This document shows positions 40,967 to 57,296 of a stretch of DNA of 64,000 bases, piece after piece. Within the stretch, counting starts at the first letter, position 1. Each line of letters starts with the position of its first letter. Under the pieces are notes generated by a model. It was not told where the DNA came from, searched no databases, and saw only the letters and a program-made list of their open reading frames with translations. The DNA is from an uncultured archaeon (GTDB taxonomy: Archaea; Asgardarchaeota; Thorarchaeia; Thorarchaeales; Thorarchaeaceae). Where the stretch lies: NCBI GenBank assembly GCA_964631415.1, contig CAZVZC010000006.1:12319-76318 (forward strand). Reading direction: 5' to 3'. The position numbers were made by a program, and so were the translations under genes.

Positions 40967-42142
40967 ATGGCTGAAGCTTTCACCAGGCCTCGCCGCCGCA
41001 TTGCCAACATGATTGCTAAGGAACTGCGCCTTATAGTCAAGGACAGGTTGGCCCTTTTCTTGATCTTCATGCTCCCGGCCGCACTGATTGGTGTCTTGTA
41101 TTGGGTTGTTGGCATGAGTGATCTGGGGAGCGTCCAGTTGGGTGGAGGAAACGGTCAAGGGAGCGATGAAGGGGGTGTAGAAACCGGAAGTGACGTTGTT
41201 CTGGGGCTGATTGACCTTGACACTACGAGGACCTACAGTGGTGAGGATCTGTCGGAGAATTTCACAGCCTTTCTTACGAAACTCGTTAAAGAACTCATAA
41301 TCTACAACAACACAAGTGATGCCTTTCAGGACCTCTATGACAAGAAGATATCTGGATATGTGGTCATCCCAGACGGCTTCGAGGCAAACCTCACGATAAA
41401 TGAGCCCACATACGTCGAAGTCCATATGGATGCAACTGCTCTGATTGAACAGAGCACAGTGATGGGGACGGTCCAAGGGGCCGCCATAATGTTCAGGGCC
41501 TCAAAGCTTTGGATTAGGTCTGAGGTCTTTCCCTCCATGATAATAGAGTTCGCACCAAAGGGAGGCTACATTGCCACTGCATTCGGTGGGTTCATTGTGG
41601 TGTTTTCTAGCTACCTTGGGATAGCGATGACTGCTGCACAGTCCATAGTGGGCGATGTGCCTCTGCGCAGGATGCTTCTCACACCGACAAACAGGCTTGA
41701 AGTCATTATCGCCAAGGTAGCTGCGTATGTCATCATTGGCTTCTTTCAGTCCCTTCTTCTGGTTTCACTTTGGGTAGTAGTCTTCAGTCTGAATCTCAAC
41801 ACGAGCTTTGGAGTCCTACTGATCATTATGAGCTTGACATCTCTCACTGGGTCAACAACCGGCATTTTGATCTCCTCAGTCGCCTCGTCTAGGCTTCAAG
41901 CCAACCAGATGTTCCTGTTCGTCATGTTCGGGACAATCATCTTGGCAGGGTTCTTCGTCGATGTCGGGGTTCTGGATGAGTACATGCCAATGAACCAAGG
42001 ACTCAAGCTGTTGATTGACACCGCGTTCAAAGGGCTTTCACTGATTGATGTCCTGATTCCAATACTGAAGTTGCTTGCATTCTCCGTGGGTGCTATCCTG
42101 ATTGCTACGTTCATCTTTTCAAAGAAGCCAACACTGGGGTAG
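40967..42142 (+). CDS. ABC-2 type exporter permease
   Basis: KELRLIVKDR, TM1, large extracellular loop (YVVIPDGF), five further TM helices, RMLLTP...IIAK. Confidence 0.9.
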   Translation: MAEAFTRPRRRIANMIAKELRLIVKDRLALFLIFMLPAALIGVLYWVVGMSDLGSVQLGGGNGQGSDEGGVETGSDVVLGLIDLDTTRTYSGEDLSENFTAFLTKLVKELIIYNNTSDAFQDLYDKKISGYVVIPDGFEANLTINEPTYVEVHMDATALIEQSTVMGTVQGAAIMFRASKLWIRSEVFPSMIIEFAPKGGYIATAFGGFIVVFSSYLGIAMTAAQSIVGDVPLRRMLLTPTNRLEVIIAKVAAYVIIGFFQSLLLVSLWVVVFSLNLNTSFGVLLIIMSLTSLTGSTTGILISSVASSRLQANQMFLFVMFGTIILAGFFVDVGVLDEYMPMNQGLKLLIDTAFKGLSLIDVLIPILKLLAFSVGAILIATFIFSKKPTLG

Positions 42143-43834
42143 GTGAGAACGGCCTTGGTCGAGACATCTGGTTCTGAACCTGTTTTGCCCCGAGAGGTGC
42201 CTTCCTTTGTTGAGGAGGCGTACTTCTCTGGAGCTAGGATTGGTGACGCGATAGACTGGTGTATCCGGAGACAGGACCGAGAGATCCACTGCGAGGTCCA
42301 AGGAGTACTCACTTCTTCAAAGGCCGAAGTCAGATTCAAGGCACGAGTTCTGAGGTTCAAGAAAGGTGTCATAACACGTAGGATTATAGTACTCGTCGAA
42401 GAGGACATGCGCAGAAAGAAGACAGGCGACCTCGATCCTGTTCTTACGGTTGGCAGCGAAGGTGCCGCACAAGAGGATGTTGCAGCTAGCCAGATCACTC
42501 TCCAGAACTACCTGAAGAGAAACATGTTCGATGACCTCTACTACGATGGCAGAGAACTGCAACAGGCGGCAAAGGACCTCGCCAAGATGAAGAGCAAGGA
42601 AATACTCTGCACGATTTGGGGTCATCGCGCTTCAGACAAGCTGCCAATGACCATCAAGGGTAATCTAGTGAGCTCCACAACTAGAGCAGCGCCCATACTA
42701 CCTGAGGGCTTTCTTGAAGTCCGAGTGGAACCTGAGGACACGGTGGGCTCTCCAAAGATCTACTTGGTGGCCCAACCTCAGCTTCTCATTGGGCCTTTCT
42801 CGAATCCTGTTCTTACTGTCATCGCCGAGAAGGTCTACATCCGGCCGTTCGCTTGGAAGGAAGCACCGGTCTACAGGGACGTGCTTGTGGCACGGAATCT
42901 CACTGTCACTACGAAGGCCGGGAAAAAGCTGATTGAGAATGTCACTTTCGCGATTAGAGAGGGAGAGATGCTCGCTATCATCGGAGAATCTGGTGCAGGA
43001 AAGTCTACCTGTATCAAAGCTCTGATTGGAGACATACCTAGCACGGGCGTCGCGAGGATTGCTGGTATAGACTCAAGGAACGCACAGAAGGTCCGCTATT
43101 TCTTTGGTTACTGCCCACAGGACCTGAGCTACATGTACGAAACCTTCACTCCGCTCGAGAACATTGTCGCCTTTGGCAAGCAATATGATATTCCCGAGTG
43201 GCAGCTCATAGAGGAAGGAAAGACTCTGCTCAGGGACTTCGGCATCATAGAGAAAGGTGGCAGCCCCACTGGAAAGCTCAGCGGCGGGCAGCAGCGCAGA
43301 GCATCAGTCGCCATAGCACTTGTCCATAGACCGAAAGTACTCCTGATGGATGAGCCTACAAGCGGACTGGACCCTGACAACAGGAATGAACTGTGGCACT
43401 TCTTGGACATGGTCAACAAGGAGTACGGCACATCTATTGTAGTCGTCACGCACTACCCAGCCGAGGCAGAGTTCTGCGACAAGGTCGCGGTCTTCCTCCG
43501 TGGCAAGAGCCTCGTGGCATTCGGCAGCCCTGCCAAGCTGAAGGAGTCACTGCCTTCGAGGGGCTTTGCTGTTGGGGTTGTACTCGAGGAAGTGGATCCT
43601 CGAGCAAGAAAGATGCTAGAGGAAGTGCAGGGTGTGTCATTCGTGCTGCAGAGGGGAGAACTGCTGAAGGTCTTCACGGAAGAGCCACTCGAAACGATTG
43701 CAGAGAAGTGCATGACCGCACTCAAGGAGAAGAGCATTGGTGTGAAGATAGTGAAGACGAAGGCTCTAGCTGACATGGTCGACTATTACATCGCCATAAC
43801 AAGAAAGCTTGTCACAGGTACTATCGAGAAGTGA
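42143..43834 (+). CDS. ABC transporter ATP-binding protein with ~245-aa N-terminal extension
   Basis: GESGAGKS, LSGGQQRR, LLMDEPT, VTH. Start is GTG 42143 or TTG 42155 (GGTGA Shine-Dalgarno upstream). Confidence 0.9.
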   Translation: MRTALVETSGSEPVLPREVPSFVEEAYFSGARIGDAIDWCIRRQDREIHCEVQGVLTSSKAEVRFKARVLRFKKGVITRRIIVLVEEDMRRKKTGDLDPVLTVGSEGAAQEDVAASQITLQNYLKRNMFDDLYYDGRELQQAAKDLAKMKSKEILCTIWGHRASDKLPMTIKGNLVSSTTRAAPILPEGFLEVRVEPEDTVGSPKIYLVAQPQLLIGPFSNPVLTVIAEKVYIRPFAWKEAPVYRDVLVARNLTVTTKAGKKLIENVTFAIREGEMLAIIGESGAGKSTCIKALIGDIPSTGVARIAGIDSRNAQKVRYFFGYCPQDLSYMYETFTPLENIVAFGKQYDIPEWQLIEEGKTLLRDFGIIEKGGSPTGKLSGGQQRRASVAIALVHRPKVLLMDEPTSGLDPDNRNELWHFLDMVNKEYGTSIVVVTHYPAEAEFCDKVAVFLRGKSLVAFGSPAKLKESLPSRGFAVGVVLEEVDPRARKMLEEVQGVSFVLQRGELLKVFTEEPLETIAEKCMTALKEKSIGVKIVKTKALADMVDYYIAITRKLVTGTIEK

Positions 43835-43838
43835 TCTA

Positions 43839-55955: not shown

Positions 55956-56039
55956 AGACAGGAACAGAAAGGAAACGGTATACTTGTCCGAAGGTTCATA
56001 AGGCCTCAGACCGAGGCTGGAAAATGGCATGGGGTAGCA

Positions 56040-57296
56040 ATGCAGAACGAAGACATCGTCGCTGCAATCGAAACAAAGCTGAGCGCAGTGGGAGTTCAGG
56101 ACATAGTGGAACCCGAAGAGGTGCGTCCTCCTGCGTTCCTGTCCAGAGACCGTAGAGTAATCAGTGACCTTGAAGAAGAACTGCAGAAGACACTGGAGGC
56201 GCTAAAGGCCGATGACAGACTGCCCCGCCTCTTGTTTGGACTGGCAAACCTCCATCTGAAGGAGGCAAACTTCGCCAGAGCGATAGTCCTCTATGAGGTC
56301 ACACTGGGGATGGACAGCAAGCGAGTTAATGCATGGCTGAACATGGGAACAGCGTACCTGTTGGCGGGTGAGGCAAAGGATGCGGTCAGCTGTTTTAGTA
56401 GTGCCCTCGCAATTGACCCTGACAATGCCCGTGCCATGACTAAGCTCGCGATGGCTCAGCTTGAGATGAATGACTATGAGGGCTGCCTGTCAAACCTCGA
56501 GAGAGCGCTTGAAATCGATCCAACACTGCTGAAGGCGATGGTGGGCAAAGGACTATACTTTGCCAAGAAAGGAGACTTCACCGGGGCAACAACATGGTTC
56601 AACAAAGCTCTGAAGGTGGACCCAATGTTCTTGCCCGCACTCACTGAACTTGGCAAGATCTACGTTTCAAACGGCCGGTACGATAGTGCTACAGAGGCCC
56701 TTGAACGCGTGGTCAGGATCGACCCGGAGCAGCCGTATGCACTCATGTTGCTTGGCGATATCCTCGTTGTACGTCGAGATTTCGAGAAGGCTCTATCGTT
56801 CTATGACCAAGCCCTGAGCATCAAGTCCGATGACCCTCACATATGGATAAGGAAAGCAGACACCCACAGGATGCTGAGGTCATACAAGGAGGCAGTGGCC
56901 GCATATGAAAAAGCCATCAATGCTAATCCCGAGAATGCAGAGGCTTGGAGCAAGTGCGGTCAAGTCCTTGTGCTTTCGAACGAAGTGCCCGCTGCCCTTG
57001 AGTACTTCAATACTGCACTAGCTCTCTTTCCAGACAGTGCAGACACTGCCCATCAGCGTGGACTGGTCTACTACTCTCTTGGGAAACTGGAGGAGGCACT
57101 GGCAGATTTCGACTTGGCCTTCTCATCTGAACCCGGCAACCCGATTCACCTCTACTATAGAGGGCTCGTACTGGAGAAGCTGGACAGGAGGCCCGAAGCA
57201 AGAAGGACGTGGCAGATTGCTGCCTCGCTCTTCAAAGAGGCAGGTGACAACACGAGGGCCGCTGAATGCTCCGCTAGGATGAAGCGTCTGAGATGA
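56040..57296 (+). CDS. Tetratricopeptide repeat protein (~10 TPRs)
   Basis: 34-aa repeats such as AWLNMGTAYLLAGEAKDAVSCFSSALAIDPDN and IWIRKADTHRMLRSYKEAVAAYEKAINANPEN. Confidence 0.92.
   Translation: MQNEDIVAAIETKLSAVGVQDIVEPEEVRPPAFLSRDRRVISDLEEELQKTLEALKADDRLPRLLFGLANLHLKEANFARAIVLYEVTLGMDSKRVNAWLNMGTAYLLAGEAKDAVSCFSSALAIDPDNARAMTKLAMAQLEMNDYEGCLSNLERALEIDPTLLKAMVGKGLYFAKKGDFTGATTWFNKALKVDPMFLPALTELGKIYVSNGRYDSATEALERVVRIDPEQPYALMLLGDILVVRRDFEKALSFYDQALSIKSDDPHIWIRKADTHRMLRSYKEAVAAYEKAINANPENAEAWSKCGQVLVLSNEVPAALEYFNTALALFPDSADTAHQRGLVYYSLGKLEEALADFDLAFSSEPGNPIHLYYRGLVLEKLDRRPEARRTWQIAASLFKEAGDNTRAAECSARMKRLR

Follow-up and report, generated by a model that had tools for sequence, protein, structure and literature searches.

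The stretch of DNA analysed here comprises 64,000 nucleotides (nt) from an uncultured archaeon of the Thorarchaeales (Asgardarchaeota; G000:C6:12319-76318) and is called the window, at its full length, throughout; it belongs to a genome of 2.16 Mb that is 85% complete. Within it we studied the region 40967-57296, in which direct reading of the open reading frames (ORFs) and their junctions gives six ORFs, all in the same (+) orientation, which an earlier note had described as a candidate cell-surface assembly and adhesion system. The first, g1 (40967..42142), encodes a permease of 391 residues of the ABC-2 type (ABC, ATP-binding cassette), as judged from PF12698 (ABC2_membrane_3) and hydropathy; g2 (42143..43834) encodes an ABC ATPase of 563 residues, recognized by its ABC_tran domain, whose N-terminus carries a sensor-like extension and whose C-terminal domain is ferredoxin-like; g3 (43839..48185) encodes a surface glycoprotein of 1,448 residues that, according to Pfam matches, structural models and its orthologues, combines an apparently dead subtilase (S8) domain with a GIFT domain; g4 (48187..49167) encodes a second ABC ATPase, again with ABC_tran, of 326 residues and without N-extension; g5 (49164..55955) encodes a giant surface protein of 2,263 residues (FG-GAP_3, TSP3_bac, orthologues); and g6 (56040..57296) encodes a cytoplasmic TPR protein of 418 residues (TPR_2, 185.8 bits). 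The closest named relatives of this archaeon are Thorarchaeota metagenome-assembled genomes, and the g2 protein of OWC3 is 96% identical to that of the window.

The first five genes are as tightly packed as had been claimed. The TAG stop codon of g1 (42140-42142) is followed with a gap of 0 nt by a GTG start of g2 at 42143 (if translation began instead at the TTG at 42155, the gap would be 12 nt); the TGA of g2 lies 4 nt before the ATG of g3 at 43839, and the TGA of g3 only 1 nt before the ATG of g4 at 48187. The last two genes of the set overlap by an ATGA at 49164-49167, through which g5 appears to be translationally coupled to g4. A longer gap of 84 nt, with no oligo-T tract, separates g5 from g6, and a TATA-like ATATATA about 15 nt upstream of the next gene, g7, suggests that the transcription unit ends after g6.

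The order g1-g2-g3-g4-g5 is intact in 13 genomes of the same family and one of the same order, as well as in all Thorarchaeota species loci (approximately 80) on contigs long enough to show it; apparent exceptions to this synteny (L075, L113, and L091) are runs of N. A full-length g3 orthologue is present in 24/24 same-family genomes. Outside this group, the g1-g4 core occurs in four other Asgard families (f12, f19, f7 and, as a variant, f9), in three further gene arrangements. In f12 (Hermodarchaeota-labelled relatives), the order permease, N-extended ATPase, dead S8/GIFT protein and second ATPase is kept without g5, whose position is taken by a small Ras-family GTPase and an aminotransferase; in one of these genomes (G035), the gene directly after the second ATPase encodes a Ras/Roc-family small GTPase of 173 residues (L029:10248-10769, - strand). 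In f19, a trio of N-extended ATPase, permease and second ATPase, transcribed in that order, is divergent from g3 and adjoins it. In f7, the N-extended ATPase, the permease and the second ATPase form an operon, and g3 lies elsewhere in the genome. An M42 aminopeptidase and a PTA_PTB-like gene stand beside the ABC trio in both f7 and f19 (L119:4942-6876, L121:3596-5617); given these common neighbours, g3 seems to have moved away in f7 from a locus that was ancestral to both families. The f9 variant, found in genus g39 (G154, L122:5175-15210), has two ABC2_membrane_3 permeases, an ATPase of 565 residues, a dead S8 protein of 1,629 residues with a DUF4350 match, and a divergently transcribed second ATPase; no TrmB match (see below) was detectable in the N-extension of its 565-residue ATPase. 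The genes adjoining the other arrangements, screened for glycosyltransferases or functional hints, were housekeeping genes only.

A survey of the phylum (151 genomes) gave the same picture. The N-terminal domain of g2 was found in all genomes of f1 (26/26), f2 (1/1), f7 (5/5), and f19 (6/6) and in 17/19 genomes of f12, and these families also have the non-S8 part of g3 at full length, the positive f12 genomes being the same 17/19. In the remaining families of the 151 genomes, no match to either reached this level; there were only weak matches to stand-alone proteins of about 160 residues in f21 and one covering only the mid-region in f9 g39. The g2-type ATPase and the dead protease thus co-occur strictly at the family level. 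By contrast, g5 was found only in f1 and f2, both of Thorarchaeia type, and a search for its cytoplasmic tail in the genomes of f12, f19, and f7 found none. As for g6, it is downstream in 11/15 loci holding the ABC block beside g3, and in f19 a TPR gene also adjoins g3; g6 may possibly belong to the system. These data indicate that the invariant unit consists of the permease, the two ATPases and the dead protease, to which g5 (and perhaps g6) is an addition in f1 and f2 only. Conservation of the gene block across Asgard genomes, which the earlier note had put forward as a check, thus holds for the core, which forms one conserved unit; its view of the giant adhesin as part of the machine does not, and because the core is present without g5, adhesion through g5 cannot be the reason why the core exists.

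The ABC parts of the core have what an ABC-2 type transporter needs, namely an ABC-2 permease and ATPases with intact motifs. The match of g1 to ABC2_membrane_3 (78.7 bits) spans profile positions 4-346 of 347, and hydropathy indicates a first transmembrane (TM) segment, an extracellular loop of about 150 residues and five further TM segments; g1 orthologues are 43-96% identical and hold the same position in the locus. The ABC_tran domain (PF00005) scores 87.5 bits in g2 (residues 265-407) and 93.3 bits in g4, whose orthologues are 41-94% identical. Both ATPases display canonical Walker A, Q-loop, LSGGQ/E signature, Walker B and H-loop motifs, invariant in alignments of 53 sequences, and both look catalytically competent. 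Being only 31-34% identical to each other, they bear out the description of one permease with two different ATPases, and would presumably work as a heterodimer. The best NCBIfam relative of g1 is the permease part of RbbA, and the best NCBIfam matches of both ATPases are to DrrA (the DrrA subfamily for g2; 178 bits for g4). For the ABC parts, the nearest NCBIfam branch is RbbA/YbhFSR, in which two different nucleotide-binding domains (NBDs) are usual.

What sets g2 apart is its N-terminal extension of 245 residues, in which residues 18-246 (42194..42880) are predicted from PF11495, a fold search and hhalign to form two tandem beta-barrel modules like the effector domain of TrmB. PF11495 (Regulator_TrmB) is matched by 51/53 g2 orthologues (best E-value 1.3e-11); g2 of the window itself scores 16.6-19 bits, below the cut-off of 22.2, and the match covers profile positions 162-231 of 233 only. 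For the fold, we used an AlphaFold2 model of the whole of g2, built from 9 sequences, with a mean predicted local distance difference test (pLDDT) of 49 and values of 59-82 for residues ~30-120; only its N-terminal repeat and its C-terminal domain were used, as the NBD was not folded and the second N-terminal repeat was unreliable. In an unbiased search against 48,161 PDB representatives, the N-terminal repeat had TrmB as its two best matches (3qph_A: Z 14.8, root-mean-square deviation [rmsd] 1.6 Å over 92 residues, 21% identity; 2f5t_X: Z 14.2), ahead of a third structure at Z 9.2, and the structural match spans TrmB residues 248-342 only. Repeats 1 and 2 are similar to one another (hhalign probability 97.2%, E-value 3.4e-11). 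Their homology and the TrmB fold match together suggest that the extension consists of two tandem copies of the TrmB sugar-binding sub-domain. A complete TrmB effector-binding domain with both sub-domains (PF11495) was also considered for g2, in which we found the C-terminal sub-domain alone, in duplicate. A profile of the g2 N-domain matched only 29 proteins among 1.84 billion representatives, which marks it as a narrow family; the protein atlas gave no usable match for it, and a profile search of the PDB returned TrmB alone, at a non-significant E-value of 0.7. TrmB senses sugars and regulates transcription in Thermococcales, and what the N-domain has in common with it is the fold of its C-terminal, sugar-binding sub-domain; unlike TrmB, g2 lacks a DNA-binding domain and carries the sub-domain as a tandem duplication fused to an ABC ATPase. 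At the other end of g2, residues 472-545 (43556-43777) resemble ferredoxin-like folds of the HMA/ACT/RAM type (Z about 9 in a PDB fold search on the model) and could be a second regulatory ligand-binding module.

The fourth member of the core, g3, is built from a pro-like region, a dead S8 head, a beta-super-sandwich, a GIFT domain, an Ig-like domain, a TM segment and a helical cytoplasmic tail. Among its Pfam matches, Peptidase_S8 is well above threshold (147.5 bits), and IFT52_GIFT, DUF4350, and ABC_transp_aux are below it. Alignment of the S8 domain (44331..45206) to the archaeal subtilase Tk-SP (3afg) shows that the nucleophile Ser is replaced by Ala and the oxyanion Asn by Asp. Among 19 g3 orthologues from six families, the Ser position is occupied by A, T, S, V, G, or L, and the oxyanion Asn is Asp in all of them (19/19); the catalytic Asp is G or S in 3/19, and the catalytic His is P or R in 3/19. 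An active S8 peptidase, with an Asp-His-Ser triad and an oxyanion Asn, can thus be rejected for g3, and the domain appears to be catalytically dead across the clade, in the pattern of a long-standing pseudoenzyme. Residues ~375-405 (44960-45060), just before the former catalytic-Ser helix, form a Gly/Ser/Leu-rich insertion of about 25-30 residues that is absent from Tk-SP and conserved among g3 orthologues.

For the part of g3 that follows the protease head, we relied on an AlphaFold model of residues 476-1448 (mean pLDDT 69.7). Residues ~485-865 (45291..46433; pLDDT 60-91) fold in this model as a beta-super-sandwich, which matches the N-terminal domains of glucodextranase, glucoamylase, GH94 phosphorylases, and GH116 (Z 17-21.4, about 232 aligned residues, rmsd 2.7-3.6 Å). 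Residues ~987-1229 (46797..47525) form a GIFT domain, identified by fold matches and by profile matches of the orthologues: it aligns with the N-terminal domain of IFT52 (5fms_A: Z 22.5, rmsd 2.3 Å, 191 residues), IFT52_GIFT is matched by 16/17 g3 orthologues (best E-value 3.5e-9), and ABC_transp_aux by 12/17 (best E-value 2e-9; g3 of the window scores 22.9 bits, the cut-off being 34.7). Hydropathy reveals two hydrophobic segments, residues 12-30 and 1345-1363; the second is followed by a cytoplasmic tail of 85 residues (TM and tail, 47871..48182), modelled as three long helices. This tail has no second copy in the genome, and R1374, I1381, E1383, L1388, A1401, D1416, and G1446 are near-invariant in 53 orthologues. 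The sequence fits either a type I protein with a cleaved signal or a bitopic, GldG-like protein with a retained anchor. As in GldG-like auxiliary proteins, the GIFT ectodomain lies between two membrane segments and is encoded with ABC-2 genes. The dead site and the IFT52 match therefore uphold the claim, made from the sequence, of a noncatalytic subtilase with a true GIFT domain and a GldG-like topology in an ABC-2 operon.

GIFT domains serve several contexts in this archaeon, as the same genome also encodes a 404-residue protein with an IFT52_GIFT match of 53.8 bits and no ABC neighbour (L129:354-1565, G000:C75), an 884-residue DUF4350+PKD protein (L127:4806-7457), and a 364-residue PF09822 protein (L128:5551-6642). 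A protein from another Asgard family, encoded in a 1.4-Mb genome (L034:7513-11328, G026:C1), has no ABC neighbours and an S8 domain with intact D/H/N/S; its 1,272 residues also include a Tk-SP-type propeptide, a weak GIFT/MBTPS1_4th match, a filamin-like repeat, and a C-terminal zinc ribbon, and judging from these features it would be an active protein of site-1-protease-like architecture in an Asgard archaeon.

Among eukaryotic proteins, site-1 protease (S1P, also MBTPS1/SKI-1) resembles g3 in having an S8 domain followed by a GIFT/GATase-like domain, a C-terminal TM segment and a short tail, and its ectodomain is matched by the g3 model (9csd_A: Z 18.0, 223 residues, 21% identity). S1P is an active protease, whereas g3 has lost the nucleophile and the oxyanion Asn and has about 480 extra residues between the S8 and GIFT domains; besides, the S8 domain of g3 is closest in sequence to Tk-SP rather than to S1P, which is not among the best 60 PDB sequence matches, and g3 scores 16.7 bits against PF23090, below the cut-off of 27. 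The GIFT, beta-domain and TM module is shared with OST48/WBP1: the part of g3 from the GIFT domain to the TM segment aligns with OST48 over 317-322 residues including the TM, at an rmsd of about 17 Å, the orientation of the domains being different. Unlike in stand-alone OST48, this module makes up the C-terminal third of a much larger protein, and neither S1P nor OST48 works with an ABC transporter, as is proposed here for g3. CspC and CspA of Clostridioides difficile have also kept a subtilase fold and lost the triad, and are thought to bind rather than cut; they are soluble spore proteins without GIFT domain, TM segment or ABC partner, and the matches of g3 to CspC/CspBA models in NCBIfam are weak and local.

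In bacteria, the closest layout is that of GldA/GldF/GldG of Flavobacterium johnsoniae, in which an ABC-2 permease and an ATPase are encoded with a large GIFT protein set between N- and C-terminal membrane segments; the wider "ABC-type uncharacterized transport system", with a PF09822 auxiliary protein beside ABC-2 genes, has the same layout. Similarity to this system does not extend to orthology, as the earlier proposal of a GldAFG-like machine might have implied. Against the GldA model TIGR03522, g4 scores 132.7 bits and g2 97.9 bits, for a cut-off of 402.6, and DrrA scores higher; the GldF and GldG models of NCBIfam gave no match to g1 or g3 at E<=1e-3; and g1, which has a large extracellular loop, is a permease of the ABC2_membrane_3 (RbbA/YbhS-like) subfamily. 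The operon further differs from gld genes in having two different ATPases, one with TrmB-like sensor modules, an accessory protein about three times larger with a dead subtilase and a beta-super-sandwich, and a single-membraned archaeon as host. Only the layout is alike.

The lineage-specific g5 is, from hydropathy, a protein with a signal-like segment (residues 1-19), a TM segment (residues 2120-2138) and a cytoplasmic tail of 125 residues (TM and tail, 55521..55952). Its ectodomain starts with a seven-bladed FG-GAP-type beta-propeller (49281..50423), matched by FG-GAP_3 (PF13517, 51.7 bits in seven stretches), Beta-prop_BBS7 (41.3 bits), and BBS2_Mid (36.5 bits), and with BBS2 as its best PDB sequence match (E-value 7.4e-5). 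There follows a stalk (50424..55448) of about 1,650 residues, 22% of them Asp, made of Ca-binding TSP3-type repeats (TSP3_bac, 277 bits), with 48 D.D.DG motifs. This agrees with the description of an integrin-alpha-type propeller on a long Ca-binding stalk. Orthologues measure 2,196-2,276 residues (2,245 +/- 19, standard deviation, n=13) at 45-71% identity, and such near-constancy in a repeat protein suggests that the length of g5 is constrained. The tail has no second copy in the genome, and its weak leads (Alpha_adaptinC2, E-value 0.15; CARDB-like protein-atlas scores below 0.9) hint at a beta-sandwich of the CARDB or adaptin-appendage type.

Both large proteins are enriched in N-X-S/T sequons, with 25 in the ectodomain of g3 (9.9 +/- 2.5 in shuffled sequences) and 46 in that of g5 (22.3 +/- 4.3), compared with 0-2 in the cytoplasmic proteins of the operon, an enrichment that marks g3 and g5 as surface glycoproteins. 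Of the two sequon-rich type I proteins with folded tails initially postulated, the sequons and TM segments are thus there, with the reservations that g3 may be either type I or bitopic and that the fold of the g5 tail is suggested by weak leads only.

The seven-blade FG-GAP propeller is a feature that g5 shares with integrin alpha heads and with BBS2/BBS7/ITFG2. A full integrin alpha was rejected, as g5 has a TSP3 leg instead of thigh and calf domains and the operon holds no VWA/beta-I protein, hence no beta-subunit gene. Ca-binding TSP3 repeats also occur in the Myxococcus gliding adhesin CglD and the cohesion proteins MtsC and MtsD, and g5 has repeat-driven NCBIfam matches to all three. The score against CglD (NF033765), 459 bits, exceeds the cut-off of 400, but it is spread over 13 repeat stretches, the best of which covers positions 169-312 of 1124, so that there is no end-to-end match and g5 is not taken to be CglD. 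Unlike these comparators, g5 is an archaeal type I membrane protein with its own cytoplasmic domain.

Other genes of the window surround the operon. Upstream of g1, a divergent ORF of 807 residues (38288-40711, - strand), which matches no Pfam family and has a single hydrophobic segment near residue 690, is present at the same place in most same-family genomes (31-54% identity) and was not seen in the same-order genome. Further upstream, at 6.7 kb, lies a GH38 alpha-mannosidase of 987 residues with all four Pfam GH38 domains (31327-34290, + strand). Downstream, the segment 57456-61738 encodes a pyridoxal phosphate-dependent enzyme, a GNAT acetyltransferase, a D-Ala-D-Ala-ligase-like ATP-grasp protein, and an ORF of 484 residues without Pfam match.

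Starting from the observed gene content, tight packing, conservation, co-occurrence, dead active site and folds, we propose, with a probability of about 0.5, that g1, g2, and g4 form a four-protein membrane machine together with g3 as an obligate extracytoplasmic accessory subunit, and that g5 is a lineage-specific partner of it; the physical complex, the direction of its work, its ligand, its substrate and any role in adhesion are what we infer beyond these observations. In this machine, g3 would occupy the position that GldG holds for GldA/GldF, its subtilase head binding without cutting; after a beta-super-sandwich like that of carbohydrate enzymes, it carries the GIFT, beta-domain and TM module also found in eukaryotic OST48 and S1P. 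ATP hydrolysis by g2/g4 would be gated by a cytoplasmic small molecule, possibly sugar-like, sensed by the two TrmB-like barrels and the ACT/HMA-like C-terminal domain of g2, and would drive the permease g1. The permease might then pass on a substrate associated with the membrane (lipid- or glycan-linked) to the g3 ectodomain, or else remodel this ectodomain, the dead protease groove of which would hold a protein partner. In Thorarchaeia, the machine would have acquired the translationally coupled g5, with its integrin-alpha-like propeller on a fixed-length Ca-binding stalk, most likely as a client or co-subunit, and its output there would probably be the deployment or control of a surface adhesin or spacer. 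This model is supported by the Asgard S8+GIFT paralogue that has no ABC neighbours and keeps D/H/N/S, the g3 clade being dead throughout. Several points weigh against it. The ABC components are generic, DrrA/RbbA-like, and their bacterial counterparts are ordinary exporters without such partners; g3 of f7 is unlinked to the ABC genes, so that co-expression cannot apply everywhere; GIFT proteins other than g3 in this genome do not lie beside ABC genes, so that a GIFT domain alone implies no ABC partner; the model behind the TrmB-like fold is of low confidence (mean pLDDT 49, and 59-82 in the matched part); and protein contacts, transcription and substrate of the operon are inferred only. Moreover, the flanking genes g0 and g7 are also syntenic within f1, which makes conservation within the family weak evidence alone, and the argument therefore rests on the cross-family rearrangements.

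These rearrangements are also what decides against the idea that a generic exporter lies beside genes of unrelated surface proteins by chance. High local synteny in one family, as seen for g0 and g7, would allow it; linkage in at least four families with different gene orders and orientations, and the matching presence and absence of the g2-type ATPase and g3 across 151 genomes, refute it as far as genomics can, so that it is hardly credible any more. Unlinked genes in relatives, which the earlier note had named as the outcome that would point to chance, were looked for, and linkage was found instead. The generic ABC parts might alternatively belong to an ordinary ABC-2 exporter, of a lipid, a glycan-linked compound, an ion or a toxic compound, with g3 and g5 merely co-transcribed and uncoupled from it. 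The parts are indeed closest to DrrA/RbbA/YbhFSR-type transporters, which commonly have two different NBDs, and the f7 trio is a self-contained operon, flanked, as in f19, by housekeeping genes (M42 aminopeptidase, PTA_PTB). We nevertheless find this unlikely, in view of the strict family-level co-occurrence of the g2-type ATPase with g3, down to the same 17/19 f12 genomes, of the adjacency of g3 kept in three different arrangements, and of the GIFT domain and GldG-like topology, a known hallmark of ABC-2 accessory proteins.

The remaining two explanations accept a coupling of g3 to the ABC module and differ from our proposal in what it would serve. If the dead subtilase were an extracellular ligand receptor, as in CspC, which controls the ABC module or is controlled by it, the system would be devoted to signalling or flux sensing rather than to bulk export. 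There is precedent for pseudo-subtilases as receptors (PMC6636752), g3 has CspC/CspBA matches and a conserved cytoplasmic tail, and g2 carries two kinds of ligand-binding-type regulatory domain; but the CspC matches are weak and local, and the core has no conserved neighbour that could be an output module, such as a kinase or a transcription factor, which leaves this explanation quite improbable. Alternatively, the operon might encode a dedicated ATP-coupled machine for adhesion, protrusion or partner contact, of which g3 and g5 are both integral parts and whose ATPases move their tails, in an inside-out activation of the adhesin. In favour of such a machine are the ATGA overlap of g4 and g5, the constant position of g5 after g4 in f1 and f2, its FG-GAP propeller and its stalk of Ca-binding TSP3 repeats, of a kind known from adhesins and gliding proteins (CglD, MtsC/D), its length held at 2,245 +/- 19 residues, the uniqueness of both cytoplasmic tails in the genome, and the finding that Asgard cells show complex surface proteins of unknown identity and no S-layer (PMC9834061). 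However, neither g5 nor its tail was found in f12, f19, and f7, which keep the core, f12 having a Ras-family GTPase after g4. Since the core is kept without g5, adhesion through g5 would be at most a lineage-specific use, and we consider this explanation, as formulated, rather unlikely. Equally speculative, and improbable as a whole, is an extension of the proposed four-protein machine in which the core is an Asgard-specific ATP-driven surface machine with a type V-like, metabolite-gated ABC motor working through a dead S1P/OST48-like subunit, and represents the prokaryotic setting from which the eukaryotic GIFT membrane proteins (S1P, OST48, perhaps IFT52) descend, the Thorarchaeia having added an integrin/BBS-like fixed-length stalk for cell-cell contact.

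Literature searches on subtilisin, ABC, integrin, GIFT/GldG, and S1P/OST48 topics in Asgard archaea and Thorarchaeota found no description of this operon, and among the Asgard structural clusters of a 2026 preprint there are OST48- and BBS7/ITFG2-like ones but not this system. New here are the linkage of the core across four gene arrangements, the finding that the g2 extension is TrmB-like and internally duplicated, and the glucoamylase-like beta-super-sandwich in a dead protease. The operon is real and conserved, and we count it among systems that join ABC-2 genes to a GIFT accessory protein, this subunit being here, unusually, a pseudoprotease. It offers a second, independent context for the role of GldG-type accessory proteins, which is still open in the gliding of Bacteroidota. 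The S8, GIFT and TM architecture of S1P and the GIFT and TM architecture of OST48 both exist in Asgard archaea, where the S8 and GIFT combination occurs in two states, an active protease and a dead form tied to an ABC transporter. Cultured Asgard archaea have no ordered S-layer and display "complex surface proteins" of unknown identity (PMC9834061), thought to mediate the cell-cell contacts invoked in models of eukaryogenesis (PMC9834061). The operon provides concrete and conserved candidates for such Asgard surface structures, linked to an energy source and a cytoplasmic sensor.

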